64,000 nucleotides of DNA, taken from positions 12,471-76,470 of the forward strand of contig JAFGQU010000022.1 of the NCBI GenBank assembly GCA_016935525.1. Reading direction: 5' to 3'. The notes beneath the pieces are model-generated. The model did no database searches. It was given only the letters and a program-made list of their open reading frames with translations, and was not told the origin of the DNA. How positions within the stretch are numbered: the stretch's first letter is position 1; every line of letters begins with the position of its first letter. Source of the stretch: Candidatus Omnitrophota bacterium (lineage in GTDB: Bacteria; Omnitrophota; Gorgyraeia; Duberdicusellales; 4484-171). The position numbers and the translations under genes were made by a program. Positions 9,146 through 56,572 of the stretch are shown piece by piece.

Positions 9146-9300
9146 GTCACATAGACACACGTATGCCTTCGGCACGTCACAAAGACACAAGGTCACAAAG
9201 TCACAGAGTCACATGTATTCGGTTCCACGTGTGACGTGTGTCGTGCAACGTGTGACTGCCCGCGAAGCAGACGTTCGTGTGACGTGTGACTTTGTGACCT
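9146..9300. repeat. Inverted array of short direct repeats (GTCACA x~5, then TGTGAC x~5). Intercistronic, 9307..10257 stop to eda start
   Basis: Left arm gtcacatag...gtcacaaag...ggtcacaaagtcacagagtcacatg. Right arm cacgtgtgacgtgtg...cgtgtgactg...cgtgtgacgtgtgactttgtgacc. Can fold as a long bulged hairpin. Confidence 0.85.
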
Positions 9301-9306
9301 TCCTGA

Positions 9307-10257
9307 TCAGTCGGCGTCGGTATCAACAAGACTTTCGTAAAATTCACGATAGTTTTCTTTATGCTCGCTATTCCTCAGTGCCATCGCGGCCCGGGGATGT
9401 TCGTTCATCATTCCGGCGATCGCATAAGGAATGATATAGCCCCATTCGATCTTTTCGCGTAACGGAACGAATTCTTTAGAGATCAAATCGAGTATCGGGC
9501 GGATATCGAATTTAGGGTTTTTCAGGAATCCGATCAATAATTCCAGTGGACAATTGCCTGCGGCCCGGCCGATGCCGTATATCGTCGCATCAAGATAATT
9601 CGCACCGTGCATGATCGCCTCGATGGTATTACCGAACGCCAGTTGTTGATGGTTATGCCCGTGAAACCCGACTTCCCGGGTTTTCAGTATTTCTTTGAAT
9701 TTTTTTACCAGCCACTCTACCGGTTCCTGATACAGCGCTCCGAAACTGTCGACAATATATACCGCCTGGACTTTACTCTCGCTTTCGATCTGCTGTAACG
9801 CTTCATCGAGTTCCGGCCCCTGGTCACGTGAAATAGCCATGACGTTAATGGTCGTTTCATACCCTTTCTCGGCAAAATGATTTACCATAAAGATCGCCTT
9901 ATCGATATCTTTTACGTAAGAAGCGACCCGGATCATATCTACCGGGCTCTCGCTTGCAGGTTTGACATCATCGATCTCTACCCGGCCCACATCGACCATT
10001 ACCGATAGTTTCGTATGCGATTCGATCCCTTTGGTTATCTTGAGAATATCCTCGTCATCACAGAACTTCCACGGTCCGTATTCTTTCGCAGAGAACAATT
10101 CCCGCGAATTCTTATAGCCGATTTCCATATAGTCTACACCGGATTCGGAGATTGCTTTATAGACCGCGCGTACCAGTGTAGGGTCAAAATCATGGTTATT
10201 GATCAATCCGCCGTCACGGATCGTGCAATCAAGCACTTTAATTTCGGGACGATACAT
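9307..10257 (-). CDS. HMGL-like (pyruvate carboxyltransferase / DRE-TIM) aldolase-family protein
   Basis: KVLDCTIRDGG N-terminal motif and TIM-barrel-like remainder. Likely start MYRPEIKV at ~10257, preceded by AAAGGAG. The ORF-track upstream extension is probably not translated. Confidence 0.65.
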   Translation of the reverse strand: MYRPEIKVLDCTIRDGGLINNHDFDPTLVRAVYKAISESGVDYMEIGYKNSRELFSAKEYGPWKFCDDEDILKITKGIESHTKLSVMVDVGRVEIDDVKPASESPVDMIRVASYVKDIDKAIFMVNHFAEKGYETTINVMAISRDQGPELDEALQQIESESKVQAVYIVDSFGALYQEPVEWLVKKFKEILKTREVGFHGHNHQQLAFGNTIEAIMHGANYLDATIYGIGRAAGNCPLELLIGFLKNPKFDIRPILDLISKEFVPLREKIEWGYIIPYAIAGMMNEHPRAAMALRNSEHKENYREFYESLVDTDAD

Positions 10258-10265
10258 AGTATACT

Positions 10266-10345
10266 CCTTTTTAGTTTGTGTGTTCGCCCGTGCTTGGTTT
10301 CCCGCCACAGGCGGGATTCCCGTTCCCAAACACGGGGTAACGGGT
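10266..10345 (-). promoter_or_regulatory. GC-rich structured 5' leader (three-way junction) upstream of the HMGL-like gene
   Basis: Outer helix GCCCGTG/CACGGGC encloses two hairpins: CCCGCC-aca-GGCGGG, and CCCGTTCCC-aaacac-GGGGTAACGGG. About 80 nt between a sigma70-like promoter and the RBS. Confidence 0.35.
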
Positions 10346-10369
10346 ACACGGGCTCACTTAATTCATAAT

Positions 10370-10406
10370 CATAAAATTATACCTGTAAAATATGAAATTC
10401 CAAGCA
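10370..10406 (-). promoter_or_regulatory. Sigma70-like promoter (TTGGAA-16-TATAAT) for the HMGL-like / eda operon
   Basis: Minus strand reads cTTGGAAtttcatattttacaggTATAATttt, ~115 nt upstream of the ATG. Confidence 0.35.
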
Positions 10407-10424
10407 CTAATGCAGTCGATGGTC

Positions 10425-10520
10425 CATGGCCGATAGTTAATAGTCAATAGTCAATAGTCGAGAGTCGATAGCCTATGGACTACGGACTATGGACTATGGA
10501 CCACAGACTATGGTCTATGG
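10425..10520. repeat. Inverted array of direct repeats (AGTCAATA-type x~5, then TATGGACT x~6)
   Basis: tagttaatagtcaatagtcaatagtcgagagtcgatagcc, then tatggactacggactatggactatggaccacagactatggtctatggact. Reverse complement of the right unit (AGTCCATA) is one mismatch from the left unit. Confidence 0.75.
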
Positions 10521-10775
10521 ACTGAATCAAAAAGCTGAAGGAGAAAAAGGGCAAAAAGCGAAAAAGTTATCAATATCTGGCAGCCAAGGACCATTATATA
10601 AGGCAGAAAGTCTTTTTTTCGTTTATAACGTTTATAACGTACGCCTCCCCGTACCTGAGCGCTTCCAGTACGGATGGTATCGCAGACGGCTTTAGCCATA
10701 TAAAGGGCGCAAAGCAGAAGTAGCAAAAGGATTCCGAGTGTATCCATGAGGTATAGGATTTAAGGCTTTTCAGTT

Positions 10776-11138
10776 TCAGACCGAATAAAAAAGCAGTATC
10801 CCGATTGCGATCATTCCCAGAGCGAGCATACGTGAAGAAAACGGCTTATTGGGGATGATTCTCTCCGAGAAGCTTAAAATGGGTTTTCGGGCAAAGATTA
10901 TGGCTGTCCCTTTTAAGAGGCTGATAATACCGAATATAACCATTACTATCGGCAAAGCCGCGTTTTGAATGTTGAGGATAAAGATTATTCCGAAAAGAAG
11001 GGCCCCAAGCGCGCCAAAATAGAATTTTGTGCCTTGTTTCCAGAATTCCAGAATAGACCGGATAAGTTGAGGTTTTACGAGAAATAAACTGCCTTCAATC
11101 ACTAAGCTGATTGCCAAAAGCTGAATCATTATTGTCAT
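10776..11138 (-). CDS. Small integral membrane protein (about 4 TM segments), function unknown
   Basis: Strong RBS AAGGAGG 7 nt upstream. Highly hydrophobic 120-aa product. Confidence 0.55.
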   Translation of the reverse strand: MTIMIQLLAISLVIEGSLFLVKPQLIRSILEFWKQGTKFYFGALGALLFGIIFILNIQNAALPIVMVIFGIISLLKGTAIIFARKPILSFSERIIPNKPFSSRMLALGMIAIGILLFYSV

Positions 11139-14417: not shown

Positions 14418-14500
14418 AAGACTAATAAAATTCCAAATTACAACTTCCAATATCCAAATGGGTCTTGTTTGTAATTTGTAAATTGGTATTTGGAATTTGG
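14418..14500. repeat. Inverted array of direct repeats (CCAAAT x3, then ATTTGG x3), immediately after gltD stop
   Basis: ttccaaattacaacttccaatatccaaatg...tttgtaatttgtaaattggtatttggaatttggag. Folds as a long hairpin followed by TTTATT on the minus strand. Possible terminator role. Confidence 0.75.
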
Positions 14501-14503
14501 AGA

Positions 14504-15952
14504 TTAGAATGTCGGCAACTCGGAATTTCCCATAAGATAGCGGTCGATATGATGTGCTGCCCGGCGGCCTTCAGAGATTGCCCAGACGATCAGGGATTGG
14601 CCGCGATGGGCATCGCCGCAGGCAAATATGCCTTTTTGCGAGGTCATAAACCTTTGGTCGGTCTGAGCGTTATTCCGGTTATCTTTTTTGATCCCGAGGT
14701 CGTCCAGTAATCCCTGTTGGGGATGTAAGAACCCTACCGCTAAAATGACCAGATCGGCATCAATATCGAATCCGCTGCCCGGTATTTCCTGCATGAGCGG
14801 ACAGGATTCGGGACTGTTCGGGTCTTTTTTAAATTCGACTTCCACACATTTGATTTTTTTGATCTCACCATTTTTTCCTACAAACTCTTTGGTGAGTACC
14901 GACCAATGACGGTTTCCTCCTTCTTCATGACTGGAAGAAGTTTTTAAAAGCATCGGATAGGCCGGCCAGGGATCGTTTTCTCTACGGCACTGAGGCGGTT
15001 GCGGAAGAAGTTCGATTTGAACCACGCAAGAAGCATCCTGACGATGGGCTGTACCCACGCAATCCGAACCGGTATCTCCTCCTCCGATCACTACTACCCG
15101 TTTACCCTGGGCGGTGATCATTTTTTCAGGAACAGTTATCCCGGCAATCCGGCGGTTATTCTGTATAAGATAATCCATCGCAAAATAGATACCGTTAAGG
15201 TCCCGGCCGGGAAGAGTGAGGTCCCGGGGAACCCGGGAACCGGTCGCGATACAGATCGCGTCAAATCTATTCCGTAACGTTTCGGGTTCGAGGTCTTTAC
15301 CGATTTCGATATTTGTCTCAAATCGGACTCCTTCTTGTTCCCATATCCGCAGCCGGCGGTCGATCACCTGTTTTTCCAGTTTAAAATCAGGGATCCCGTA
15401 GCGCAAGATGCCTCCGCATTTTTCATCTTTTTCATACACGGTTACCGTATGGCCGGCTTGATTTAGTTGTGCCGCACAACTCAATCCCGCCGGTCCCGAT
15501 CCGATTATCGCCACCTTTTTCCCGGTACGCGATTGCGGCGGGCGAGGCCGGATCAGGCCATGGGTAAACCCGTATTCAATGATCGAGAGTTCATTTTCCC
15601 GGATAGTGACCGGATCATCATTGATCCCTAATACGCAGGCATATTCACAAGGCGCCGGGCATACCCGTCCGGTAATTTCCGGAAGATTATTGGTTGTGCC
15701 TAACAGTTGTAACGCTTTTTCCCAACGCCCTGAGATCATCGCGTCGTTCCATTCCGGAATATAATTTCCGACAGGACAGGCCCAATGACAAAAAGGAGTA
15801 CCGCAATCCATACAGCGTGATGCCTGTTCGGCCGATTTCTCATCACTACGTAACAAAGACACTTCTTTATAATCTTTTATCCGTTCGCAGACCGGCCGAT
15901 ACGGTGTTTTTTCTCTTTTTGTCTTTAAAAACGCTTTTACGTCCTTCGCCAT
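14504..15952 (-). CDS. gltD: Glutamate synthase (NADPH) small subunit
   Basis: Two Cys clusters ([23 protein letters not shown]). GSGPAGL FAD/NAD folds. 482 aa. Directly downstream of gltB. Confidence 0.9.
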
Positions 15953-16061
15953 TGCTCACTCCGTTCGCTACACAGATGATCGCTGATTTTATACTGATGA
16001 GCGCAGATATTTGCATCTGTGATTATATGCTTCTCCAGTTTCTGTAGCAATCTGCGTATAA

Positions 16062-32377: not shown

Positions 32378-32461
32378 GTTGTCCTATTGATTTACTATAT
32401 CAATATCGTTTATGCTGTCAAGGGGATTATTAAACAGCGGATAGCGTAGAGCGATTAGCGG

Positions 32462-32600
32462 ACAGATGGAAAATCCCGATCAAATCCAAAGCGCTAAATT
32501 CAAAAAAGGTATTCGCTTTCCCCATTAGGATTTCGGATTTAGAATTTTGGATTTTTAAGCCTGTGACGTGTGACCTTATGTCTATGTGACCTATTTCTTC
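32462..32600. repeat. Composite repeat element: AAATCC x2-3, GGATTT x3, TGTGAC x3 (3' of gltD/nfnB-like gene)
   Basis: aaatcccgatcaaatccaaagcgctaaattc...ggatttcggatttagaattttggattttt, then tgtgacgtgtgaccttatgtctatgtgacc. Its reverse complement has the same module order as 36793..37052. Confidence 0.8.
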
Positions 32601-34028: not shown

Positions 34029-34106
34029 AAATTAGCATTTAGCAATTAGCAATGTGAAATTCGGAAATTCTCTTATTTCTTCCATTGCTAAATGAAAATT
34101 GCTAAT
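34029..34106. repeat. Inverted array of direct repeats (TTAGCA x3, then TGCTAA x2-3) between the nfnA-like and nfnB-like genes
   Basis: aaattagcatttagcaattagcaatg...cattgctaaatgaaaattgctaattg. Confidence 0.75.
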
Positions 34107-34125
34107 TGATCATTGATAATTTTTC

Positions 34126-34998
34126 TTACTCTATACGCTTACCGCTATCCGCTATTCGCTGTAAATTACAGATATGTTTCTCTTTTTTTTCGTACATCTT
34201 ACTGCGCTGGAAGAGTTCGTCCCAATCGACCAAGTGGGCATCGAATTCCGGCCCGTCAATACATGCGAATTTTGTTTCTTTATCTACCGTGACCCGGCAA
34301 CATCCGCACATGCCGGTCGCATCGACCATAAGCGCGTTAAGCGAGACTATAGTCTTGAGTGAATATCTTTCGGTAATCTCGGTGACTTTTTTCATCATCG
34401 CAACCGGCCCGACCGCATAGGCTAGATGGTAAGGAGTATTGTTATGGTTTTTCTCAAGAAGACGAAGAAGGACATCGGTCACCAATCCTTTCTCTCCTGT
34501 GGAGCCGTCATCGGTCGTGGCAAAAAACTCATCGGATAGGCCTTGAAGTTCTTTTCTTAAAATAAACAGGTCTTGACTACGTGCTCCGATAATAGTAGTG
34601 ATCTGATTCCCGATGTGTTTTAAAGCCCGGGTTACCGGATATACCTCGGCAATCCCTACTCCTCCCCCGATAATGAGTATCCTCCCGAATTTCTTGATCT
34701 GGGTAGGGGTCCCTAAAGGGCCGGCAAGGCTGAATACCGTTTCCCCGATACCCAGTTCTCCCAGTTTTCCCGTAGAATATCCGGCGTGTTGAAAAATAAG
34801 AGTGATCGTCCCGGTTTCTTTATCGCTCTCCACTATGGTCAACGGGATCCGTTCGCCGGTCGCGGTGGGAATCACTACTACGAATTGTCCGGGGCGGGCT
34901 TTTTGGGCGATAAGCGGAGCAATGATACGCAATTGAGTGATTCGCAGGGGATCTTTCCGGATGAGTTCTTTTTTATCGATAATCTTCATCAGTATCAA
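34126..34998 (-). CDS. PyrK-like FAD/NAD(P)-binding, [2Fe-2S] electron-transfer subunit (NfnA / SudB-like)
   Basis: FNR-like fold. C-terminal MCGCCRV...C cluster typical of PyrK/NfnA. About 285 aa. Confidence 0.75.
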   Translation of the reverse strand: MILMKIIDKKELIRKDPLRITQLRIIAPLIAQKARPGQFVVVIPTATGERIPLTIVESDKETGTITLIFQHAGYSTGKLGELGIGETVFSLAGPLGTPTQIKKFGRILIIGGGVGIAEVYPVTRALKHIGNQITTIIGARSQDLFILRKELQGLSDEFFATTDDGSTGEKGLVTDVLLRLLEKNHNNTPYHLAYAVGPVAMMKKVTEITERYSLKTIVSLNALMVDATGMCGCCRVTVDKETKFACIDGPEFDAHLVDWDELFQRSKMYEKKEKHICNLQRIADSGKRIE

Positions 34999-36792: not shown

Positions 36793-37052
36793 TAGGTCAC
36801 ATGTCACATAGTCCCACGACACACGTTACTTTGACTTTATTCGGATACGGTTAGATTTCAATCACCAATAACCAAGATATATCTTTTAAATCCTAAATTC
36901 TAACCCCTAAATCCTAAACAAATTCGAAATGGGGAAAATCCAAAACAATACCACTGAGACCAAAAATCAAAAATATATCAATATTTTGGGTTTGGGATGT
37001 ATGATTTAGGATTTGCTTAGAGCCTAGGATTTTGGATTTAGGATTTAAACTG
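36793..37052. repeat. Composite repeat element: GTCACA x2-3, AAATCCTAA x3-4, spacer, TTAGGATTT x4
   Basis: ggtcacatgtcacatagtc...taaatcctaaattctaacccctaaatcctaaac...ggaaaatccaaaac...gatttaggatttgcttagagcctaggattttggatttaggattt. Same modules as 32462..32600 in opposite orientation. Confidence 0.8.
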
Positions 37053-37924: not shown

Positions 37925-37925
37925 A

Positions 37926-39038: not shown

Positions 39039-39046
39039 GCTGAATC

Positions 39047-40207
39047 CTATCGAGAGAATGCTGAAATAAAAGCGTTCACAACCTGGGGATGAAACTGTAC
39101 TCCGGAATTTTTTTTAATTTCTGCGATCGCCTCATCATGGGTCAAAGCTTTACGGTACGGCCGTTCAGTAGTCATCGCGTCATAGGCATCGGCGACTGAA
39201 ATAACCGCGGCGATCATCGGGATTTTTTTACCGGATAACCCTTGAGGATATCCTTCCCCGTCATAACGTTCATGATGATACTTTACTCCCAGAATCACCT
39301 GATTGAGGTCTTTTATCGGAGAAAGGATGCCTTCTCCTACCAGCGGATGAGTTTTAATCGAAGCCCATTCGGTTTCGTTTAAACTTTCCTGTTTGTTCAG
39401 TATCTGTTCCGGCACGCCGATCTTTCCGATATCATGCAGGAGCGCGGCAATACGCAGATGAGAGGTAAATTCTTCCCAGTTCCGGATCTTTCTCATCTTA
39501 CGCAGTTGGTTGGCGATGACCATCGAATAATCGACGACTCGTTTGGTATGTCCCGAAGTATAGTGGTCTTTCGCTTCAATCGCCTCAGCCAGCGTCGATA
39601 TCGTCTGGACGAAAAGATTCTGATTTTTCTCAAGCTGTATCGTAAGGTCTTCAAACAAACTGGCATTTCGTATTGCCATCGCCACATCCGAAGAAAGGAT
39701 AGAAAGAAACGTGAGTTCGTCGGTCCCGAAAGATTTCTTATCTTTTTTCTCGCCTAACACGAATACTCCGAAAAACTCGTCACGGAAGAATATCGGGATG
39801 GCTATCCTTGCTTTATAGACCTTCAATTGTTGATGCAGTTGTTCTAAAAGCTTCTTTTCTTCGGGCGACTCCAGGATTTTTTTACTTTTCAGACGGGACT
39901 GGATCCGTTCGGTAATAAGAAACAGATTATCGTGGCCGGGAACGTGATAAGTAAGAAAATATTTGATTAAAGGCGACTCCGAAGATATCTTGATCAGTCC
40001 GGAAGGGACTTTTGTCCCTTTTTTGCCCTGACTGATCGTAAGAATATAGGATTTTTTCTGTTGGTCAAAAAGGAATATCCCGGCATGAGATACCTTCAGA
40101 CAACGTAACACGGTGCGGATGATGAGTTTGATCAAGGTGTCGGTACGATGTATCAGGATCATTCGGCGAGCCGCTTTTTCAAGCTCTTTACGATAAGTTA
40201 TTTTCAT
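39047..40207 (-). CDS. GAF-domain HD-GYP phosphodiesterase (c-di-GMP signalling)
   Basis: HD motif (LLHDIGK) and HHERYDGEGYPQGL (HD-GYP signature). N-terminal GAF-like region. Confidence 0.8.
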   Translation of the reverse strand: MKITYRKELEKAARRMILIHRTDTLIKLIIRTVLRCLKVSHAGIFLFDQQKKSYILTISQGKKGTKVPSGLIKISSESPLIKYFLTYHVPGHDNLFLITERIQSRLKSKKILESPEEKKLLEQLHQQLKVYKARIAIPIFFRDEFFGVFVLGEKKDKKSFGTDELTFLSILSSDVAMAIRNASLFEDLTIQLEKNQNLFVQTISTLAEAIEAKDHYTSGHTKRVVDYSMVIANQLRKMRKIRNWEEFTSHLRIAALLHDIGKIGVPEQILNKQESLNETEWASIKTHPLVGEGILSPIKDLNQVILGVKYHHERYDGEGYPQGLSGKKIPMIAAVISVADAYDAMTTERPYRKALTHDEAIAEIKKNSGVQFHPQVVNAFISAFSR

Positions 40208-40275
40208 GAGTTTGTATCAATCGTATTGTCAGCGGAAGGCCTCATCTCCCTTTGAGATCAGTGAGAAAAAACGTA

Positions 40276-40632
40276 TCAATTCATATATTTGCCGATCAAC
40301 GTATCCAGCGATTCCAATTCTATCGGTTTTACCAGATAATCGATCACACCGAATTTTTTTGCCCGTACAATCGATTCTTTATCGTCTTTGGCGGTAATCA
40401 TGATGACTTTTGTATCGTGGGAGGAGTTGCGGATATGTTCTAAGATATAGAAACCGTCTTCCCCGGGCATTTTTACATCCAACAATACTAACTGAGGGTT
40501 CTCGGCATCGAATATCTCCAGTGCCGATTGGGCCTCCGTGGCGGTGAACGCTTTAAATCCTTTACGTTTCAAAAAATTCTTAAAAAATTCAACTACTTCG
40601 ACTTCGTCATCGACAATCAATATTTTACTCAT
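40276..40632 (-). CDS. Single-domain response regulator (CheY-like receiver)
   Basis: ILIVDDE...LLDVKMPGEDGF...KVIMITA with conserved D/D/T/K positions. Confidence 0.85.
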   Translation of the reverse strand: MSKILIVDDEVEVVEFFKNFLKRKGFKAFTATEAQSALEIFDAENPQLVLLDVKMPGEDGFYILEHIRNSSHDTKVIMITAKDDKESIVRAKKFGVIDYLVKPIELESLDTLIGKYMN

Positions 40633-40754
40633 TGCTCCTCCTTAAGTTGCTTCATCGATCAGGTAGAACCCGGTATAATAATGAAATTTATTATACCATA
40701 AAATAATTTTTGGGGTATATTTTCCTTACTGGATAACGGCTAAACGGCTTCCGG

Positions 40755-42002
40755 TTATTCCGACTCGAGGGTAAGTTTGGTTATGATCTCGGCGATGGTA
40801 GGATGCATAAAAACGCTCTTTTTTAAGCTATCGATGGACATTCGGTTGCGTATCGCATAGGCAAAAATACTGATAAGCTCACAGGCCCCCCGGGAAAGAA
40901 GCGTGGCTCCCAAGAGGGCTCCTTTTTCATCTATAAGGATTTTAAGGTAACCTCCATCGTCATGGTATACCGATGATGACGAAAATGGGCGAAAATGGGT
41001 TTTAAGAGCGCGGTACGCTGTTCTTTCCTGTTCTAACTGCTCCTCTTGGATTCCTACCTGGGCCAGTTGAGGAATAGTAAAAACACCTTCCGGAATACCC
41101 ATAACACTGTATTTCTGGCTGTTTCCGGCAATATTTTCTACGCAGATACGGCCCTGATATTCTCCGATATAGGCATACATCTTTTCTGCGGTCACATCGC
41201 CGCAGGCGTAAATATGCGGCAGGTTTGTCTGACAGAATTCATTAGTAAGGACCCTTTGCGACTGATCACGTTGTATCCCGATAGCATCCAGGTTAAGCCC
41301 CTGAGTATGCGGCACTCTGCCTGCGGCAAGCAGGACCATATCATATTCGTTGAAATCATATTGAGCGGCATCGGCCCCGGTATGAATATCGATGCCTTCG
41401 CGGGACATGTACGTTTTTAACCTTTGAACGATTGAACTGTCAAATCCTAAAAGGATCCGTGGTTCTTTTTCTATGACGGTCACCTTCCGGGAAAGAGTAT
41501 GTAAGAGCGAGGCGAATTCCACGCCGATAGCTCCTCCGCCGACAATAAGGAATTTTCCGGGCAGGGTTTTAAACGAAAAAAGAGTTTCGGCAAAGAATAT
41601 CTTTTTATTGTCTACTCCCAGAAAATCTCTGGGATGAGAACCGGTCGCGATAATATAATATTGAGATTGGATCCTTTTTTCTCCGACGGCGATCTCCCGG
41701 TCATTTATAAACCGGGCCGAGCCCCATAAAAATTCCAGCCCTTGGGTGTGAAGGAATTGGAGCGACTTTTTTTTAATGGATCCGACCAGTTTTTCTTTTT
41801 CCTCATAAAGCCGGGCGGGATTTTTTTCGTATCCCCCGTGGTGAAGATACAGTTTGGCGGGGATGCAACCCCGGTTAAGGCAGGTCCCGCCGTATAGAGC
41901 GGGATCTACATCGATCAGGACGGTCTTTTTTTTCTTTTTCAATGCCTGCCGGGCGGCTTCGATCCCTGCGGCTCCGGCTCCGATTATTACGATATCGTAC
42001 AT
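40755..42002 (-). CDS. Class I pyridine nucleotide-disulfide oxidoreductase (dihydrolipoamide dehydrogenase family)
   Basis: IVIIGAGAAG. Redox-active GGTCLNRGCIPAK. C-terminal FMHPTIAEI dimerisation motif. 415 aa, shorter than canonical Lpd. Confidence 0.7.
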   Translation of the reverse strand: MYDIVIIGAGAAGIEAARQALKKKKKTVLIDVDPALYGGTCLNRGCIPAKLYLHHGGYEKNPARLYEEKEKLVGSIKKKSLQFLHTQGLEFLWGSARFINDREIAVGEKRIQSQYYIIATGSHPRDFLGVDNKKIFFAETLFSFKTLPGKFLIVGGGAIGVEFASLLHTLSRKVTVIEKEPRILLGFDSSIVQRLKTYMSREGIDIHTGADAAQYDFNEYDMVLLAAGRVPHTQGLNLDAIGIQRDQSQRVLTNEFCQTNLPHIYACGDVTAEKMYAYIGEYQGRICVENIAGNSQKYSVMGIPEGVFTIPQLAQVGIQEEQLEQERTAYRALKTHFRPFSSSSVYHDDGGYLKILIDEKGALLGATLLSRGACELISIFAYAIRNRMSIDSLKKSVFMHPTIAEIITKLTLESE

Positions 42003-42910
42003 TGTCTGAACGAAAGGTTATAGTCGTCGACCGTTTTCTTTATCCGGGCATCAAGAGGGATCTCAATGATCTTTTCTATTCCGTCCTTTGAAATGATACA
42101 AGGAACTCCCATAGCAATATCCGAGACTCCGTATTCTCCGTCAAGACAGACCGAAACCGGAATCAGGCTGTGGGTATCAAGAGCGATCGATGCGACAAGG
42201 TCAGCGCAGGCTAAAGACGGCGCAAAATAGGCGCTGCGGCTTTTCAATTGGTCCACTATTTCTTTTCCGCGCAGTGTTACGCGGGACGAGACTTCTTCCT
42301 GTTCTGAGGGAGTAAGAAAATCGGTTATCGGAAGGTTGTTGTATTTTGAATACTCCAGAAGTGGAAGCATATCTTTACTATGCGGGCCGATTACCAGCGA
42401 GTGGATCGAAGCCGGATCGACCGTGGTCTTCTGGTAGATCAGGTTGGTCAGACGTGCCGAGTCAAGGCCGGCTCCCATACCGATCACCCGGGTACGGTCG
42501 AACCCTAACCTTTTTTGCACGAAATATACCAGAAGGTCAAGAGGATTGGTCACGATGACGACTACGGATTCCGGCGCGTTCTTTTTTATCTCAACAGCGA
42601 TTCCTTCGACAATAGTACGATTGATCTTTAAAAGATCACTACGGGTCATTCCTTCCTGTCTCGGTTTACCGGCAGTAATGACTACGATATCCGATCCGGC
42701 GATATCGGAAATCCGGTGGCTTCCGGTGATCTGCGTCCGGAACCCTATAAATTGCCGGGTATCTTCAAGGTCATAAGCGATCCCGCAGGCGAGTCCCGGG
42801 AGAACATCCACCAGGACAAGGTCTTTAAGGTCTAGTTTATTTAAAAGATGGAAGGCAAGTGCGCTTCCTACCGAGCCGGCTCCGATAATAGAGATTTTAT
42901 TGATCATAAT
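41987..42910 (-). CDS. mdh: Malate dehydrogenase (LDH-like family)
   Basis: ISIIGAGSVG. ITAGKPRQEGMTRSDL with Arg at the substrate-specificity position (malate-type). Start set at MINKISIIG. Confidence 0.8.
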   Translation of the reverse strand: MMINKISIIGAGSVGSALAFHLLNKLDLKDLVLVDVLPGLACGIAYDLEDTRQFIGFRTQITGSHRISDIAGSDIVVITAGKPRQEGMTRSDLLKINRTIVEGIAVEIKKNAPESVVVIVTNPLDLLVYFVQKRLGFDRTRVIGMGAGLDSARLTNLIYQKTTVDPASIHSLVIGPHSKDMLPLLEYSKYNNLPITDFLTPSEQEEVSSRVTLRGKEIVDQLKSRSAYFAPSLACADLVASIALDTHSLIPVSVCLDGEYGVSDIAMGVPCIISKDGIEKIIEIPLDARIKKTVDDYNLSFRQCTIS

Positions 42911-42917
42911 CGTTATA

Positions 42918-43032
42918 TTGAAATACGATAGAAATACATAGAAATACGATGGAAATGCAATTGTATTTCGTTCCGTGAAGCGGAACATATTTCACGAACG
43001 TATGTGAGTATATTTCGCGAAGCATATTTCAA
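42918..43032. repeat. Inverted array of direct repeats (GAAATAC x4, central hairpin, GTATTTC x4) between the IDH-family gene and mdh
   Basis: gaaatacgatagaaatacatagaaatacgatggaaatgcaat - tgtatttcgttccgtgaagcggaacatatttcacgaacgtatgtgagtatatttcgcgaagcatatttcaatg. Confidence 0.85.
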
Positions 43033-44114
43033 TGAGACTTTATTTTCTTGATTATTGCATCGGCCATCTGAGACGTCCCGACTGCGGCCGGATCGTCACG
43101 GTCGGCTTTTAGATCATAGGTTACCGCTTTCCCTTCGGCAATAACCTCTTCGACCGCTTTTTCGAGGCAGCAGGCTTCACGTGTATATCCCAGATGTTTT
43201 AACATCAACACCCCCGAAAGGATCGTTGCGGTCGGATTCACCTTGTTTTTTCCGGTATATTTCGGAGCCGAGCCGTGGACCGGTTCGAACACCGCATATT
43301 CATCTCCGATATTCGCGCCCGGGGCGACCCCTAACCCCCCTACCAATCCTGCGCATAGATCGGAAATAATGTCGCCGTAGAGATTTTGTAATACCAGAAT
43401 ATCAAAATTTTGCGGACGGGTCACCAATTGCATGCATAGATTATCGACAATGATATCGCCGGCTTCAATATCGGGATATTCTTTGGCGACTTCTTTAAAT
43501 GTATGCAGCCATAATCCGTCGGTCGCTTTCATGATGTTCGCTTTATGTACACAGGTAACCTTTTTGCGGCTTTCTTTACGGGCCAATTCAAAGGCAAACC
43601 GGCTGATATGGCGAGTTGCGCTTATCGATATCGGTTTAATCGAGATGGCACTGTCTTTTCGTATCTCCTGCCCGCTTGCGGCTGAGATCTGCGATATAAG
43701 CTTATCGGTCACTTCCTCACCCTGAAAGAACTCTATGCCGGCATAAAGATCTTCGGAATTTTCCCTCAGTACGATAATATCGACGTTTTTATGAGGCGCG
43801 GCTACTCCGGCTATGGTCTTTGCCGGCCGCAGGCATACGGACAGATCTAACGCATGTCGCAAGGCTACATTTACCGAACGGAAACCGCTTCCTATCGGAG
43901 TAATGATCGGCCCTTTAATGGCTACTTTATTTTTTTTTATCGAATCGAGAGTTGCTTTAGGCAGGAGCTCTCCGCTTGCTTCCAATGCCGGTTGCCCGGC
44001 CAACGCTTCTTGCCATTCGATAGTTACTCCGGTCGCATCGATACAACGCCGTGTGGCCAGAGTCACTTCCGGCCCGATCCCGTCACCTGGGATAAGAGTC
44101 ACTTTGTGCGACAT
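43029..44114 (-). CDS. Isocitrate / 3-isopropylmalate dehydrogenase family protein (NAD-dependent beta-decarboxylating dehydrogenase)
   Basis: LIPGDGIGPEV N-terminus. FRSVNVALR. GSAPKYTGKNKVNPTATILS. 361 aa. IDH vs LeuB vs homoisocitrate DH cannot be resolved by eye. Confidence 0.75.
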   Translation of the reverse strand: MSHKVTLIPGDGIGPEVTLATRRCIDATGVTIEWQEALAGQPALEASGELLPKATLDSIKKNKVAIKGPIITPIGSGFRSVNVALRHALDLSVCLRPAKTIAGVAAPHKNVDIIVLRENSEDLYAGIEFFQGEEVTDKLISQISAASGQEIRKDSAISIKPISISATRHISRFAFELARKESRKKVTCVHKANIMKATDGLWLHTFKEVAKEYPDIEAGDIIVDNLCMQLVTRPQNFDILVLQNLYGDIISDLCAGLVGGLGVAPGANIGDEYAVFEPVHGSAPKYTGKNKVNPTATILSGVLMLKHLGYTREACCLEKAVEEVIAEGKAVTYDLKADRDDPAAVGTSQMADAIIKKIKSH

Positions 44115-44210
44115 TGCATCCTTTCCCGCGTGAATCCCTGCCCGCCCTGCCTGAGTACAGTCAGGGCGCAGGCGGTGGCGCGTTTTGATCCGTGGGATTC
44201 CGCTGCTATC

Positions 44211-44711
44211 TTACAATTTAAAATCACCGTATTTTTTTAAATAAGGGATGATCCCCCCCTGATTCACCAATTCTTTACGGAATGAATCAAATTTGACAAA
44301 TACACTCTCTTTATTTTTTGTATGGTTGTAAATAACTCCCCGGTCGCAATCAACCGTCAGTTCATCTTTTTCTGCGATCCCTTCGGTATCGGCTTCAATC
44401 AGCGGCAGGCCGATATTAAAGGCATTACGATAAAATATCCGGGCAAAACTTTTTGCTACTACACAGGCAATTCCCGCTTCTTTGATCACCCAGGGCGCCT
44501 GTTCCCGGGAAGAACCTAACCCGAAATTATTTCCGGCAATGACGATCGATTTTCCGGGAGTGATCTCTTTTGAAAACCCCGGCCGGATATCTTCAAAGAG
44601 ATATTGTGATAATTCCTTCATATCGCTGATTTTAAATTTGTAGCGCCCTGAAATGATAAAATCGGTATTGATGTCGTCGCCAAAACGAAAGGTTATGCCG
44701 TCAAATTTCAT
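44211..44711 (-). CDS. leuD: 3-isopropylmalate (or homo-)aconitase-family dehydratase, small subunit (archaeal-type LeuD)
   Basis: 166 aa. GDDINTDFIISGRY and AGNNFGLGSSREQAP motifs. Confidence 0.75.
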   Translation of the reverse strand: MKFDGITFRFGDDINTDFIISGRYKFKISDMKELSQYLFEDIRPGFSKEITPGKSIVIAGNNFGLGSSREQAPWVIKEAGIACVVAKSFARIFYRNAFNIGLPLIEADTEGIAEKDELTVDCDRGVIYNHTKNKESVFVKFDSFRKELVNQGGIIPYLKKYGDFKL

Positions 44712-45757
44712 AAGTTTTTGAAATCCAGAGGGTTACGGACTCTGGTCATCGCAGTTTCCATTGTGATTACTCCGGTCTGTACCAGTTCTTTAAGACAATG
44801 GTCCATAGTGTGCATTCCGTATTGAGCGCCCATCTGCATCAATGAAGGAATCTGCGCGATCTCTCCTTCACGGATCAAATTTCTGATACCGGGGGTGGAA
44901 ATCATCACTTCTGTCGCAAGTCTTCTTCCCTGCCCGTCAGCCCGCGGTAAAAGGTTTTGCGAGATTACCCCTTGCAGACAATCGGCAAGTTGTACGCGTA
45001 CCTGTTTTTGTTGATGCGGAGGGAATACGTCGATGATCCGTTGTACGGTCTGCGGAGCATCGGAAGTATGTATTGTCCCCAGTACCAGATGGCCGGTTTC
45101 GGCCGCCGTGATCGTCGTTGCAATCGTTTCCAGATCGCGCATTTCCCCTACCACGATCACATCGGGATCCTGGCGTAAACAACGTTTTAAAGCTTCCGGG
45201 AACGAATGGGTATCGGCGTACACTTCTCGTTGTTTTATGATACTCTTACGGTTCTCATGATAGAATTCTATAGGGTCTTCTATACATACGATCATTTCCT
45301 GTCGTTCGGAGTTGATCACATCGATCATTGCCGCCATGGTAGTGCTTTTTCCAGTTCCGGTCGGCCCGGTGAGAAGAATAAGGCCGTTACGGCGTTGAAG
45401 TAACTCGTAAGCAATCGGCGGTAGGTCTAATTGATCCATGCCGGGAATCACCTTTGGAATCCGTCTAAATGCCGCCTCTACACTGGTCCTTTGATAGTGG
45501 ACATTAACCCGGAACCGGTCAAGTCCGGACATAGTAAACGAAAAATCAAGTTCTTTGTCGCGTTCAAAAATAGCTTTTTGATCGTCAGTCAATATACTGT
45601 AGATGAGTGATTTAGTCTCATCGCCGGAGAGTGAGTCCATCGTCATCGTGTACAGGCGGCCGTCAATGCGCAAGATCGGAGGTTGGTTGACAGTGATATG
45701 AAGGTCACTGGCTTTTTTATCCATAGTGAGCTTCAGTAGTTCATTGATCGTTACCAT
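44708..45757 (-). CDS. pilT: Type IV pilus retraction ATPase PilT
   Basis: Walker A LLTGPTGTGKSTT. PilT-signature GHLVLGTIHTSDAPQTVQRIIDVFP. 349 aa. Confidence 0.85.
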   Translation of the reverse strand: MVTINELLKLTMDKKASDLHITVNQPPILRIDGRLYTMTMDSLSGDETKSLIYSILTDDQKAIFERDKELDFSFTMSGLDRFRVNVHYQRTSVEAAFRRIPKVIPGMDQLDLPPIAYELLQRRNGLILLTGPTGTGKSTTMAAMIDVINSERQEMIVCIEDPIEFYHENRKSIIKQREVYADTHSFPEALKRCLRQDPDVIVVGEMRDLETIATTITAAETGHLVLGTIHTSDAPQTVQRIIDVFPPHQQKQVRVQLADCLQGVISQNLLPRADGQGRRLATEVMISTPGIRNLIREGEIAQIPSLMQMGAQYGMHTMDHCLKELVQTGVITMETAMTRVRNPLDFKNL

Positions 45758-48201: not shown

Positions 48202-48231
48202 TAGGAAAAATAACGGTTTGGTTATCCCGAC

Positions 48232-48262
48232 GCGATAAAACTCCGGCTTTTAAGCCGGAGAT
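48232..48262 (-). terminator. Rho-independent terminator after rplQ
   Basis: Minus strand CTCCGGC-ttaaaa-GCCGGAG followed by TTTTAT. Upstream hairpins GATTCCGC/GCGGAATC and CCGGA/TCCGG. Confidence 0.6.
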
Positions 48263-48380
48263 AGAAACTCTGGTCGGGATTCCGCTCCTGCGGAATCATA
48301 AAGAGAACCTACGGGCTTTCCCGCACCTTATTGTTTTTATTCAGCGAGATCCCGGAATGTCCGGAATAGCCCGTGGAGCT

Positions 48381-54662: not shown

Positions 54663-55099
54663 TCAACCGATCCTCCGGCATTTTTGATCAATTCTTCGGC
54701 TTTTTTAGAAAACCGATGTGCAGAAAATGTAGCTTTAGTTTTAAAATCTCCCTTGATCCGGCCAAGTATTTTAACCGGCATTTTTTCATCGGAAATCAGT
54801 TGGGCTTTTTTTAACGTCTGCGGATTAATCTGGGGGGCATCTTTCATCTTTTTCTTCACGGATTCCAGGTTCACGATCTGATATTCCATAGGGTTTACGG
54901 AAGTAAATCCCCGTTTAGGTATCTTTCTGAAAAACGGGACATTCCCTCCTATCGCTCCGACATAAAATTTGGTACCGACCCGTTGCCCGGATCCTTTATG
55001 TCCGCGTCCTGAAGTCTTTCCGTGCCCGGATCCGGTTCCCCGGCCGACCCGTTTATTTTTTTTCTTTTTACGAGCTATGCGAATCTGAGACAGGTTCAT
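54647..55099 (-). CDS. rplO: 50S ribosomal protein L15
   Basis: GRGTGSGHGKTSGRGHKG motif. Overlaps the rpsE 3' end by ~30 nt. No L30 gene between rpsE and rplO. Confidence 0.9.
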   Translation of the reverse strand: MNLSQIRIARKKKKNKRVGRGTGSGHGKTSGRGHKGSGQRVGTKFYVGAIGGNVPFFRKIPKRGFTSVNPMEYQIVNLESVKKKMKDAPQINPQTLKKAQLISDEKMPVKILGRIKGDFKTKATFSAHRFSKKAEELIKNAGGSVECLKP

Positions 55100-55571
55100 C
55101 TTTTTTTTCCTTTAACTGGTCTAATCCATTGAAGGTCGCTTTCACCACGTTTATCGGGTTACGGGACTTACGCAGGATCTTTGTCAATATGTCATTAATA
55201 CCGGCACATTCACATATCGCCCGGACCGTCGCGCCGGCGATTACGCCGGTCCCTTTTGAAGCCGGTTTAAGCATCACTCTTACCGAGCCATACATCCCTT
55301 CGGTTTCATGGGGAATCGTCCGGTCCTCGACTTTTTTTACCTCTATTAATTCTCTTCTCGCTTTTTTAATCGCTTTTTTGATAGCACTGGCTACTTCATT
55401 GGCTTTGCCCATCGCGTAGCCTACTTTATCTCGACCGTCACCTACTACTACCAGCGCAGAAAATGCAAGGTTTTTCCCTCCCTTGGTAACTTTCGTGACC
55501 CGGTTAATGGAAATAACTCTTTCAATAAACGCCGGTTGCTCTGCTGTGTGTACTTGTCTTTCGGTCTCCAT
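55068..55571 (-). CDS. rpsE: 30S ribosomal protein S5
   Basis: S5 dsRBD and C-terminal domains. Confidence 0.95.
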   Translation of the reverse strand: METERQVHTAEQPAFIERVISINRVTKVTKGGKNLAFSALVVVGDGRDKVGYAMGKANEVASAIKKAIKKARRELIEVKKVEDRTIPHETEGMYGSVRVMLKPASKGTGVIAGATVRAICECAGINDILTKILRKSRNPINVVKATFNGLDQLKEKKDEPVSDSHSS

Positions 55572-55927
55572 TAAAAAATCAAACCTCCTTCACGGGCACC
55601 TTCGGCAATAGCCTTTATTTTACCGTGATATTTATAGCCTCCTTTATCAAAACATACATTTTTTATTCCCAATTCAATGGCTTTAGCGGCTAAAAGCTTG
55701 CCGACTTCTTTTGCCCCGGCCTGGGTAGAAGAACTGACCTTTTTTTCTTTAAACGGCTTACTCAGGCTGGAAAGTCCGGCAATGACTCGTTGCGTTTCGT
55801 CGTTCACGATCTGGGTATAGATATGTTTATTACTGCGAAATACCACCAATCGCGGCCGGCTTTCAGACCCTTTAATCTTTTTCGTGAACCGATATTGTCT
55901 TCTTTTTCTGGGATTCTTTTTCATCAT
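55571..55927 (-). CDS. rplR: 50S ribosomal protein L18
   Basis: RPRLVVFRSNKHIYTQI signature. Confidence 0.95.
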   Translation of the reverse strand: MMKKNPRKRRQYRFTKKIKGSESRPRLVVFRSNKHIYTQIVNDETQRVIAGLSSLSKPFKEKKVSSSTQAGAKEVGKLLAAKAIELGIKNVCFDKGGYKYHGKIKAIAEGAREGGLIF

Positions 55928-55933
55928 ATCACC

Positions 55934-56473
55934 TTATTTGGTCATCGCTTTCCCTAATTTTTTACGGACTTCTTCACCGACATAGCGGATCCCTTTACCT
56001 TTGTACGGTTCCGGCGGATAAAGACTGCGTATTTTTGCGGCGAACTGACCTAATTGCTGTTTGTCATTTCCTTCGATGACGATTCTGGTTTGCCCTTCGA
56101 CCTTGGTCGTGAGCCCCTCCGGGACAGGCAGTTCGACCGGATGAGAGAAGCCGATACTTAAGGCAAGAGTGTTGCCTTTCATCTGGGCCTTATATCCCAT
56201 CCCGATGATCTCTAATTCACGTTTAAAGCCGGTAGTGATACCAATAACTACATTATTAAGCAACGCCCGGATGGTCCCATGAAGACTCTTGATCGGTTTC
56301 TCATCGGATAGTCTCTCTACCCATACCTGGCCGCCCTCTATTTTTGCGTTAATCCCTTTAGGTAACACAAAATCGTGCTTCCCTTTAGGACCTTCAAAAT
56401 GGATAGTCCTGTCCTTTAAGGTCGCGTTCACTTTTTCCGGTAGTGTTACTGGTTTTTTTCCTATTCTCGACAT
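55934..56473 (-). CDS. rplF: 50S ribosomal protein L6
   Basis: MSRIGKKPV...two L6 domains. Confidence 0.95.
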   Translation of the reverse strand: MSRIGKKPVTLPEKVNATLKDRTIHFEGPKGKHDFVLPKGINAKIEGGQVWVERLSDEKPIKSLHGTIRALLNNVVIGITTGFKRELEIIGMGYKAQMKGNTLALSIGFSHPVELPVPEGLTTKVEGQTRIVIEGNDKQQLGQFAAKIRSLYPPEPYKGKGIRYVGEEVRKKLGKAMTK

Positions 56474-56484
56474 ACGCTTCGCTT

Positions 56485-56572
56485 TACACAGATAATCACT
56501 GATTTAAAACAGATGATCGCTGATATTCTTTGTGGCTATCTGTGTTTTTTTATCTGTGCTCATCTGTGTTTT
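56485..56572. repeat. Inverted array of direct repeats (CAGAT(A/G)ATC(A/G)CTGAT x2, then ATCTGTG x3) in the rpsH-rplF spacer
   Basis: cacagataatcactgatttaaaacagatgatcgctgata...ctatctgtgtttttttatctgtgctcatctgtgttttt. This is a ~98-nt gap where S8 and L6 genes normally abut. Confidence 0.8.

Follow-up and report, generated by a model that had tools for sequence, protein, structure and literature searches.

Palindromic short-tandem-repeat arrays in intercistronic spacers of a Candidatus Omnitrophota genome: fast-evolving and probably selfish foldback DNA

Several spacers between genes of a Candidatus Omnitrophota MAG contain runs of a very short unit followed by inverted copies of the same unit, which raises the question of what these arrays are and how they came to lie inside operons. 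The sample of the source genome was 64 kb (the window). An earlier note listed eight loci in it and described them as n direct repeats followed by n inverted copies, with locus-specific motifs, each folding into a long hairpin and belonging to no described repeat class. All eight loci, and at least two that had been missed, contain 2-7 copies of a 6-7-nt core and then inverted copies, the number of which equals the forward number to within one or two; the period of the window arrays is mostly 7. The 'n then n' layout was borne out to within one copy, or two at locus 3. The features are listed below by position in the window, with no strand assigned. Unit counts are given as forward/reverse with at most one mismatch, and z is the folding Z-score against dinucleotide shuffles.

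9146..9301: locus 1, GTCACA units at period 8 followed by TGTGAC units at period 7-8, centre G+C-rich; flanked by the stop of an HMGL-like gene (9307) and a KDPG-aldolase start (~9136); 7/6 units; inverted-repeat pairs I20 and I24, Tandem Repeats Finder, z = -2.5
10425..10523: locus 2, (ATAGTCA) about 6x, then (CTATGGA) about 7x, one fixed base per unit differing between arms; 7/6 units; pair I3, Tandem Repeats Finder, z = -5.0
14428..14501: locus 3, weakest of the eight, AAATTCC/CCAAAT units, then ATTTGGA units, beginning 3 nt past the stop of a gltD-like gene (14504-15952); 2/4 units; pairs I6 and I8, Tandem Repeats Finder, z = -1.7
15971..16056: missed earlier, a degenerate CACAGAT-family member ('>><<') occupying the gltB-gltD spacer
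32435..32465: missed earlier, array of AGCGGAT-type heptamers, about four direct copies, with an inverted partner 1.7 kb off at 34131-34163
32471..32554: locus 4 foldback, AAATCC units, TGGGGAAA centre, then GGATTT units; 3/4 units; pair I15, Tandem Repeats Finder
32563..32590: locus 4 half-array, three TGTGAC units adjoining the stop codon of gene 32591-34003; inverted counterpart at 36793-36815
34029..34121: locus 5, (AATTAGC) 3x, then (TGCTAAT/ATTGATA) units, occupying the spacer that separates two oxidoreductase subunit genes; 3/3 units; pairs I2, I4, I5 and I10, Tandem Repeats Finder, z = -7.3, identical in an independent assembly (L083)
34131..34163: missed earlier, inverted AGCGGAT-type array (ATCCGCT units) within the last codons of ORF 34126-34998; Tandem Repeats Finder 34131-34160
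36793..36815: locus 6 GTCACA half-array, immediately upstream of a glycosyltransferase start (~36773)
36885..37049: locus 6 foldback, AAATCCT units and, across a ~70-nt centre that includes TGGGGAAA, TTAGGAT units; 6/7 units; pairs I1, I9 and I16, Tandem Repeats Finder, identical in L083
42918..43032: locus 7, GAAATAC cores (period 11), then (G/A)TATTTC cores (period 14-24), the outermost unit overlapped by the TGA stop of the isocitrate dehydrogenase (IDH) gene; 4/4 units; Tandem Repeats Finder, z = -3.9, identical in L083
50579..50612: missed earlier, 4.6 copies of GTAACGC heptamers in the S11-S4 spacer, self-complementary via ACGCGT motifs; Tandem Repeats Finder
56485..56572: locus 8, CACAGAT family ('>>><<<'), occupying the S8-L6 spacer from 3 nt past the S8 stop to 13 nt ahead of the L6 start; 3/3 units; pair I12, z = -3.0

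The eight loci are real, as indicated by unit counts, Tandem Repeats Finder, shuffles and the independent assembly. Tandem Repeats Finder reported period 7 in 11 of 14 arrays at the listed loci and period 8 or 11 in the remainder, and the 15 longest pairs found by an inverted-repeat search of the window include 6 of the 8 loci. A k-mer scan detected 14 loci in the window (about 9 of them not poly-A/T) compared with 0-3 in block shuffles. The density of arrays of period 7, 8, 10 or 11 is 0.19 per kb in the window and 0.052 per kb in a control set of 897 kb of loci from 80 other genomes; for arrays that also have inverted partners, the values are 0.14 and 0.028 per kb, respectively. The window arrays either overlap the upstream stop codon or begin 0-8 nt past it, and generic foldbacks begin at a median of 11 nt past it. 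A 79-aa ORF (10508-10747, minus strand) has its terminal TAG within the locus 2 array.

The motifs, which had been regarded as locus-specific, recur. The S8-L6 element belongs to a large, dispersed family of CACAGAT...ATCTGTG modules that matched at least 120 metagenome stretches and 0 viral contigs. The gltB-gltD spacer of the window contains a second copy, and a relative carries a third in its S11-S4 spacer; when window 56474-56575, window 15953-16061 and L081 3258-3372 are aligned, loop included, they show 78% column identity, and locus 8 is 82% identical to L081 3269-3355. Elements of this family are most often laid out as '>>>><<<<' or '>>><<<' with a heptamer spacing of 10 nt, and a whole-element variant (CACAAAT...ATTTGTG) is present in L131. 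Nearly every intercistronic spacer carries the CACAGAT element on some contigs. The spacers in which CACAGAT elements lie are co-directional in 58 cases, divergent in 12 and convergent in only 4. Loci 4 and 6 are two copies, in opposite orientation, of one GTCACA+AAATCC composite, and both contain the TGGGGAAA centre. AGCGGAT heptamers occur in the window and in L081, where the array lies at the 3' end of the IDH gene. The same architecture was observed in Chloroflexota, Gemmatimonadota and Verrucomicrobiota loci. One layout with many different cores, as the earlier note argued, goes beyond a single transcription-factor site.

The comparison of syntenic spacers that the earlier note proposed shows that the arrays were inserted or expanded and are not ancestral. 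In the relative L081 (IDH protein identity 85%), locus 6 is absent and the spacer at that position is 1 nt, and different arrays are present at the IDH-MDH, S11-S4, L36-S13 and aconitase-T2SSE spacers. In the more distant Omnitrophota L204 and L206 the gene order is retained and the spacers, which measure 1-30 nt, are free of arrays, and the position of locus 7 measures 1-4 nt in other Omnitrophota. L102 and L144 (88% identical) show whole-module differences within one element, and the arrays that follow the same stop codon in the two are unrelated. Since syntenic relatives have either tight spacers or other arrays at these positions, the turnover of the arrays is fast. The S8-L6 junction had been called invariant, which overstated the case: in 76 genomes its spacer has a median of 29 nt and reaches about 190-270 nt.

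The best explanation, to which a probability of about one half is assigned, is that the arrays are palindromic short-tandem-repeat elements, that is, dispersed, slippage-prone, selfish or neutral foldback DNA tolerated in harmless spacers. Each element would be non-coding DNA in which either arm is an array of a 6-7-nt core. Families would disperse to new intergenic sites by some form of mobility, and slipped-strand mispairing within each arm would gain or lose units; motifs and copy numbers would thus change rapidly, and new motif families would appear. Elements would survive only at low-harm sites, upstream of the next gene and either directly behind a stop codon or just overlapping one. The inversion of the arms would let the insert fold back in the mRNA and loop out, so that about 12-25 nt would remain between stop and start codon, which may be why the arrays are tolerated. 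A host function is probably absent. A generating process and MITE- or REP-like dispersal were both among the candidates of the earlier note, and slippage within arms together with such dispersal is the best reading. Some observations speak against it. The copy numbers of the two arms match to within one or two despite the seemingly independent evolution of the arms, which requires a restoring force (selection for pairing or a coupled mechanism) that slippage and dispersal do not supply. In addition, no target-site duplication was seen at the CACAGAT-family elements examined, and neither a transposase or RAYT recurring beside the elements nor an autonomous parent element was found. The boundaries of the window and L081 arrays are too diverged to judge target-site duplication.

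The alternative that survives best, although its probability is low, is that the arrays are binding sites, with 6-7-nt cores recognised by a sequence-specific DNA- or RNA-binding protein and the inversion reflecting binding geometry, not a hairpin. Candidate binders are a transposase with multiple subterminal sites and an abundant host protein, for instance a tandem-dimer winged-helix regulator or an OB-fold protein with a footprint of ~7 nt; a cold-shock protein on each heptamer has been raised for the TAACTGA repeats (PMC4679880). The CACAGAT and GAAATAC cores are paired at 10-11 bp spacing, and the dominant spacing of 10 nt is close to one helical turn. In each CACAGAT arm, a semi-conserved 21-nt spacer separates two heptamer pairs. 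The core is conserved, in contrast to the linkers, 21-nt spacers and flanks, which vary freely and show no complementarity above chance; the core is also kept in at least two phyla on contigs of 36-67% G+C, which fits sequence-specific recognition better than neutral drift. Against this, the dozens of different cores within the same genomes would require as many proteins, genes for a candidate protein do not recur nearby, pure tandem 7-nt arrays allow no helical phasing, and no regulon logic is apparent in arrays that are carried by ribosomal operons, gltBD, TCA-cycle genes and response regulators alike.

It is unlikely that the arrays are host-beneficial mRNA hairpins, i.e., intercistronic stems that block 3'-5' exonucleases, serve as RNase III cleavage sites or couple translation. 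Roles in transcript stability and in translational coupling have been proposed for the hupS-hupL STRR hairpins (PMC2670836), and folding is much better than in shuffles at most loci. The long hairpin of the earlier note was confirmed at loci 1, 2, 5, 7 and 8 (Z-scores of -2.5 to -7.5) and is weak at loci 3, 4 and 6 (-0.4 to -1.7). Six window loci run from the stop codon to 10-18 nt before the next start. A Shine-Dalgarno sequence is often missing from genes just downstream of arrays (present in 1/6 vs 35/61, p = 0.09), and this scarcity could indicate a translational role. A structural element under selection is nevertheless not supported, given the absence of a sense-strand preference in folding energy (10 vs 11 loci, p = 0.47) and of compensatory changes in the CACAGAT family, the only one of sufficient size for the pairing test, where variable heptamer position 2 showed 1 compensated and 51 uncompensated cases. 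Arrays are also missing from the syntenic operons of other Omnitrophota, replaced by unrelated ones in close relatives, present in divergent promoter spacers and in both orientations, and matched by no Rfam family.

Purely local generation, in which slippage and arm-to-arm template switching (quasi-palindrome correction) build an array from a short inverted repeat and nothing moves, is doubtful. It agrees with the very high motif diversity, many different cores occurring within the same kind of genome, and with the unrelated arrays at the same hot spot in close relatives. The units are homogenised within an arm, and the 7-nt array (GCAGATT)n of L144 looks derived from a CGCAGATT module. Homologous elements with their loops and spacers are, however, present at non-orthologous sites within and between genomes. 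Template switching between arms, one of the processes suggested earlier, is contradicted by fixed arm differences: the AGTCAAT units of locus 2 face the reverse complement of AGTCCAT, and in 22 of 31 foldbacks the consensus units of the arms differ, often in most units of an arm. Unit spacing is also often unequal between arms, as at locus 7, with period 11 in one arm and 14-24 in the other.

Rho-independent terminators or attenuators, another earlier suggestion, are very improbable. The arrays follow stop codons and a few, such as locus 3, have a short U-rich stretch after them, but a terminator consensus scan flagged no array, none having a G+C stem with a U tract, yet found classical G+C-stem and U-run terminators at 29300, 29364 and 32377; moreover, arrays lie inside essential operons (S8-L6, gltB-gltD), and the CACAGAT family is under-represented in convergent spacers. 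The A+T-rich spacers and the weak Z-scores at loci 3, 4 and 6 might speak for low-complexity sequence arisen by chance or for an artefact of assembly, but this reading has a negligible probability. The shuffle and cross-genome controls exclude chance, and an artefact is made unlikely by the 100% identity of window 33029-45107 (loci 5, 6 and 7) in the independent Logan assembly of SRR13394437; the same elements are also present in many independent assemblies.

Among the closest known systems are the cyanobacterial STRRs (short tandemly repeated repetitive sequences), which in their classical form comprise three main heptamers. The window arrays share with them the ~7-bp tandem units with inverted copies, the capacity to form hairpins and the intergenic or intercistronic location, but have many cores within a few kb, families with period 8 or 10-11 and linkers, and arrays that adjoin or overlap stop codons. 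STRR hairpins of ~7-bp units lie between cyanobacterial cistrons, e.g., hupS-hupL in Nostoc and Anabaena (PMC2670836). The hupS spacer of Nostoc PCC 7120 contains ttgtcag three times with ctgac repeats downstream (PMC2408588). Heptamer simple-sequence repeats (GGGAATC in Xanthomonas, GGGGAYT in Nostoc) were described by Rehm et al. 2015, and Xanthomonas has 70-75 cases per genome of two nearby convergent arrays capable of forming a stem-loop (PMC4692102). These intergenic heptamers show the same layout of n units followed by n inverted units, whereas a single G-rich, quadruplex-capable motif dominates the Xanthomonas genome and the window motifs are A+T-rich, diverse and free of G-tracts. Two control loci from Gemmatimonadota, L031 and L007, contain a G-rich version of this type. 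The architecture had therefore been described before, contrary to the earlier note.

Three other systems are less similar. REPINs and BIMEs are REP doublets mobilised by RAYT transposases (PMC3116915); they resemble the arrays as dispersed, non-coding, extragenic inverted doublets of ~80-130 nt that form families, singlet remnants and clusters. The units of the arrays are direct repeats of a 7-nt core and not individually palindromic 20-40-nt REPs, and have no GTAG or CGTC tag; neither a compensatory spacer change nor a RAYT gene was found. Bacterial MITEs include the Correia elements and the hairpin-forming MITEs of Thiomargarita (PMC4853749), and are likewise small, non-autonomous, hairpin-forming and intergenic, with many copies and presence or absence among relatives. 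The arrays differ in that neither a target-site duplication nor a parent IS element was found, and in arms that are internally repetitive and change in unit number. TAACTGA direct heptamer repeats occur in Beggiatoaceae, Cyanobacteria and Bacteroidetes (PMC4679880). They share 2-6-copy heptamers, an intergenic position near coding-sequence boundaries, stop codons in the unit and occurrence in several phyla, but are almost all direct (one inverted case) and fixed in orientation upstream of starts, whereas the window arrays are inverted pairs.

By analogy, the arrays would be the Omnitrophota counterpart of a kind of repeat already known from cyanobacteria and Xanthomonas. They look like fast-evolving repeat DNA, probably selfish, and not like a new regulatory device.

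Inverted arrays of short units, in which 6-7-nt cores stand in tandem and are followed by the same cores in inverted orientation (foldbacks), were read in the sequence at all eight loci listed in an earlier note on this DNA. A ninth locus was added. Units were counted at up to one mismatch.

Foldback arrays of the window (genes nearly all on the minus strand), with unit counts
Locus 1, 9146-9301: 7 forward and 6 reverse units
Locus 2, 10425-10523: 7 forward and 6 reverse units
Locus 3, 14428-14501: 2 forward and 4 reverse units
Locus 4, 32471-32590: 3 forward and 4 reverse units
Locus 5, 34029-34121: 3 forward and 3 reverse units
Locus 6, 36793-37049: 6 forward and 7 reverse units
Locus 7, 42918-43032, at the isocitrate dehydrogenase (IDH) stop codon: 4 forward and 4 reverse units
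Locus 8, 56485-56572, S8-L6 spacer: 3 forward and 3 reverse units
Ninth locus, added to the eight: 3 forward and 3 reverse units
Gene starts directly downstream of arrays: ~9136, 34003, 36773, 42907, 56473 and also 15952

Arrays were reported at every one of the eight loci by Tandem Repeats Finder, with a period of 7 in 11 of 14 arrays and a period of 8 or 11 in the others, and six of the eight loci were among the 15 longest pairs found in the window by an inverted-repeat search. Fourteen k-mer loci (about nine of them not poly-A/T) were observed, compared with 0-3 in block shuffles. Period-based detection replaced a first k-mer rule (two forward and two reverse 6-mers), which gave no discrimination between genomes, and a strict ungapped arm-matching rule, which detected nothing, the window included. 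Arrays of period 7, 8, 10 or 11 that have an inverted partner reach a density of 0.14 per kb in the window versus 0.028 per kb in 897 kb of controls from 80 other genomes; these controls are cross-phylum loci taken from an L6 search of genome contigs, with L6 relatives 44-54% identical and no close genome among them. The segment 33029-45107, which includes loci 5-7, is identical in an independent Logan assembly (SRR13394437).

All of the loci are intercistronic and located between co-directional genes, as had been stated in the earlier note, and arrays are present in 9 of the 35 window spacers of at least 60 nt. The best matches of the window proteins carry the name Candidatus Omnitrophota, and no exact match to the S8 protein is on record. 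Neighbouring genes are ordinary, encoding KDPG aldolase, an HMGL-like enzyme, a radical-SAM protein, gltB, a gltD-like protein, lipid A acyltransferase, a glycosyltransferase, IDH, malate dehydrogenase (MDH) and the ribosomal proteins S8, L6, S11 and S4. Arrays in the window start 0-8 nt past the upstream stop codon or overlap it; the outermost unit of locus 7 contains the TGA stop codon of IDH, and an ORF has its final codons within an AGCGGAT array (34131-34163). Six loci carry arrays that span their spacers. In six cases it stops 10-18 nt short of the next start codon, so that the spacer is filled by the array. A Shine-Dalgarno match was found in one of six genes directly downstream of arrays and in 35 of 61 genes elsewhere (Fisher's test, p = 0.09). 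An unannotated hydrophobic ORF of 79 aa is located at 10508-10747 on the minus strand, with its last five codons and TAG stop supplied by the locus 2 array, and adjoins a small membrane-protein ORF (10776-11138).

The motifs had been described as locus-specific; several of them, however, recur among loci. Locus 8, the gltB-gltD spacer (15971-16056, missed in the earlier note) and the S11-S4 spacer of the syntenic relative L081 carry CACAGAT...ATCTGTG modules with 78% column identity, loop included. Loci 4 and 6 are one composite element in opposite orientation, consisting of a GTCACA array and an AAATCC foldback with a TGGGGAAA centre; the two copies, 4.2 kb apart, flank five housekeeping genes that L081 has in the same order. 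The window contains two AGCGGAT arrays, and this type of array is also present at the IDH 3' end in L081. Within the 64-kb window GTCACA recurs three times, AAATCC two to three times and CACAGAT twice, and motif diversity is high; no GTCACA array was found at the other loci compared. A separate G+C-rich, structured dispersed repeat with the core CGGGATCCCGCTGGATAAAAAT...GGTGCGGGAAA..CCC was observed in three non-orthologous spacers (window 3238-3562, window 48202-48380 and L081 4012-4279), with no Rfam match at the gathering threshold.

A search pattern derived from three CACAGAT copies matched at least 120 metagenome stretches, with chance matches roughly estimated at about one, and had no match in viral contigs. 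Among these matches, 80 retained loci contain 109 clusters of CACAGAT and ATCTGTG heptamers, the commonest layouts being four forward and four reverse heptamers (27 clusters) and three forward and three reverse (15 clusters). Among heptamers of the same orientation a 10-nt spacing dominates (302 cases), ahead of 14 nt (39) and 28 nt (30), which indicates that an arm consists of two CACAGAT-N3-CACAGAT modules around a 7-nt or a semi-conserved 21-nt spacer. Judged by the names of near-identical neighbouring proteins, the carriers include Omnitrophota and one Chloroflexota contig, and the G+C content of carrier loci ranges from 36 to 67%. In some contigs the element is present in nearly all intercistronic spacers, with the first heptamer 0-2 nt past the stop codon. 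No match to the element sequence was found in a literature search. One contig with standard CACAGAT copies also carries CACAAAT...ATTTGTG in six of six units (L131, 4354-4424), which looks like a motif variant spread across a whole element. A short palindromic element, CCTGCCTGCC..GGCAGGCAGG, adjoins heptamer arrays in several metagenome contigs (L102 9255-9300, L127 ~1180-1200 and L150 ~3480-3500); it is present in L102 and not at the orthologous site of L144.

On the carrier contigs, 66 further arrays with inverted partners were found, giving a merged total of about 50 foldback loci together with the window and L081. Their cores are many and different (e.g., AATACGC, AAATACG, GAGCTAT, TAAGCTA and GTCGAGG). 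The same layout is present in control loci of Chloroflexota (L071, S8-L6 spacer included), Gemmatimonadota (L031, L007), Verrucomicrobiota (L015) and a deltaproteobacterium (L049). In the Chloroflexota MAG contig JAUWOY010000041.1 (L071, 384-7840), nearly all spacers of the ribosomal-protein operon contain a heptamer array, far more densely than in the window; these include direct-only arrays of GAGATTA, AGTTGGA, GAGTTTC and CTGAATA and two GAAGTTG...CAACTTC foldbacks with a common loop.

Comparison with the syntenic spacers of relatives, which the earlier note had called for, indicated that the arrays are derived. In L081, whose IDH protein is 85% identical, the site of locus 6 is a 1-nt spacer, the IDH-MDH, S11-S4 and L36-S13 spacers carry arrays different from those of the window, and a CCAAAT-type foldback is located at a spacer of 15 nt in the window. 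In two more distant Omnitrophota the gene order is kept and the spacers are 1-30 nt long, with no such arrays. Two carrier loci that are 88% identical (L102 and L144) differ by whole modules at one orthologous element and carry unrelated arrays past another shared stop codon. These comparisons imply that the arrays are lineage-specific and short-lived and recur at the same hot spots. In the aconitase-T2SSE spacer, an L081 array stands in place of GAGAGGAAAG, which is present in the window.

The earlier note did not recognise a described repeat class, yet such a class is already on record. In cyanobacteria, STRRs with units of 7 bp form intercistronic hairpins, for instance at hupS/hupL, their function being unknown (PMC2670836, PMC2408588), and Xanthomonas genomes contain 70-75 convergent pairs of GGGAATC arrays each (PMC4692102). 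Direct repeats of TAACTGA are known from Beggiatoaceae, Cyanobacteria and Bacteroidetes (PMC4679880). The window arrays resemble the STRRs and heptameric SSR hairpins in their tandem units of about 7 bp, the nearby inverted array and the intercistronic site. STRRs comprise a few heptamers at very many genome sites; in the 64 kb of the window several motifs recur, but with a high diversity of motifs. Elhai et al. in 2008 reportedly described small dispersed repeats within heptamer arrays of Nostoc.

Dispersal is shared with MITEs and REPINs. REPINs are inverted REP doublets mobilised by RAYTs (PMC3116915), and REPs are recognised by a GTAG or CGTC tag (PMC3733652). The REP unit is an imperfect palindrome of 20-40 nt with this tag, whereas the window elements have direct-repeat cores of 6-7 nt and no tag. 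Compensatory changes preserve the hairpin of the REPIN doublet, whereas in the CACAGAT family the frequent A/G variation at position 2 of the heptamer has a single compensated case versus 51 uncompensated ones. RAYT, a Y1 transposase, is encoded by a gene that is flanked by repeats in REP-RAYT systems. No recurrent protein family was found next to the elements across 512 kb of carrier contigs from incomplete genomes, but a RAYT gene is single-copy. As in MITEs, elements are present or absent at orthologous sites in relatives, and many related copies occur at non-orthologous sites, including three AATACGC copies in one carrier locus (L109). Among 24 canonical CACAGAT elements the similarity of the 3-nt flanks does not exceed chance, giving no sign of target-site duplication. 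A MITE parent would be autonomous, with ends like those of the MITE on both sides of a transposase gene; half-arrays exist, none of them around a transposase-like ORF in the loci examined. As far as these tests could be run, the window elements fail those that define REPs, RAYT association and target-site duplication.

Integron attC sites have RYYYAAC/GTTRRRY core sites bounding mobile cassettes beside an integrase; they were rejected because the core sequences differ and the arrays lie among housekeeping genes that keep a conserved order. CRISPR was rejected for lack of unique spacers and CRP-like TGTGA-N6-TCACA sites for unsuitable spacing; riboswitches and leaders were also considered and rejected.

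The arrays are best explained, with a probability of about 0.5, as dispersed, slippage-prone foldback repeats that persist past stop codons since they can be looped out. Such repeats would disperse among spacers, the arrays would change by slippage, and those past stop codons would be retained by virtue of being looped out. Arm consensus units differ in 22 of 31 foldbacks, often in most units of an arm, and in locus 2 the same base differs in every unit. Amplification or homogenisation of units therefore takes place inside each arm, or starts from a seed pair, and units are not copied from the opposite arm, which argues against quasi-palindrome correction. The foldback-repeat explanation does not account for the near equality of the arms, whose copy numbers differ by one or two units at most. 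From the earlier interpretation, the view that the arrays are not sites of a single factor stands, as does the proposal of a generating and dispersing process; the locus-specific motifs, the undescribed class, terminators and a selected structure do not.

Arrays of binding sites are a rather unlikely alternative. As far as the sequences of the CACAGAT family indicate, the core is conserved and selection on pairing is not detectable; motif diversity among the arrays is high.

Beneficial mRNA hairpins are unlikely. Each locus had been expected to fold into a hairpin, and this held for loci 1, 2, 5, 7 and 8 (z = -2.5 to -7.5 versus dinucleotide shuffles), with weak scores at loci 3, 4 and 6. Of 21 foldbacks between co-directional genes, 10 have the better fold on the sense strand and 11 on the opposite strand (p = 0.47), and the window loci likewise have no sense-strand bias. 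Complementarity of the N3 linkers, spacers and flanks of the CACAGAT family is not above that of shuffled partners. Rfam gave no match at the gathering score in the whole 64-kb window, and hence no ribosomal-protein leader, though the S10-spc-alpha operon region is included. With no strand bias, compensation or Rfam match, no selected structure was detected for the structural RNA/DNA element that had been suggested.

Intrinsic terminators lie where transcription units end and consist of a short, G+C-rich stem with a U tract after it. No array was flagged by a consensus scan, versus classical terminators found at 29300, 29364 and 32377 on the minus strand, and CACAGAT elements occur in 58 co-directional, 12 divergent and only 4 convergent spacers; the terminator or attenuator role that had been considered was rejected on both grounds. 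At 32348-32421 on the minus strand, upstream of a 546-aa gene with a Glu_synthase domain, a near-consensus sigma-70 promoter (TTGACA, 16 nt, TATAGT) is directly followed by a classical terminator hairpin and U run; this unit may be a leader, an attenuator or a small RNA.

It is quite doubtful that the heptamer foldbacks are the product of one unrecognised cross-phylum process, either a dedicated mechanism or protein that seeds arrays near stop codons and grows both arms in step, or an abundant protein that reads 7-nt cores. If this were true, the CACAGAT modules (two heptamers 10 bp apart and two modules per arm, in Omnitrophota and Chloroflexota) would represent a unit of function and not junk, and the 35-year-old STRR puzzle would also be explained. 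Purely local generation is improbable, given that related copies, loop included, recur at non-orthologous sites, even with units amplified within arms.

Inverted arrays of 7-nt units, long known from cyanobacteria and Xanthomonas but unexplained, are hereby recorded in Omnitrophota as well, and probably in several further uncultured phyla, and CACAGAT is a large, previously undescribed family that can be used for studying the origin of such arrays. If the arrays had a function, such as in mRNA processing or as platforms for protein binding, they would amount to a layer of regulation widespread among uncultured bacteria, and the evidence leans against this. Repeats of this type can be located within essential operons, directly past stop codons. 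The arrays lengthen spacers, extend or truncate the ends of ORFs, and can disrupt or mislead MAG assembly and gene calling.
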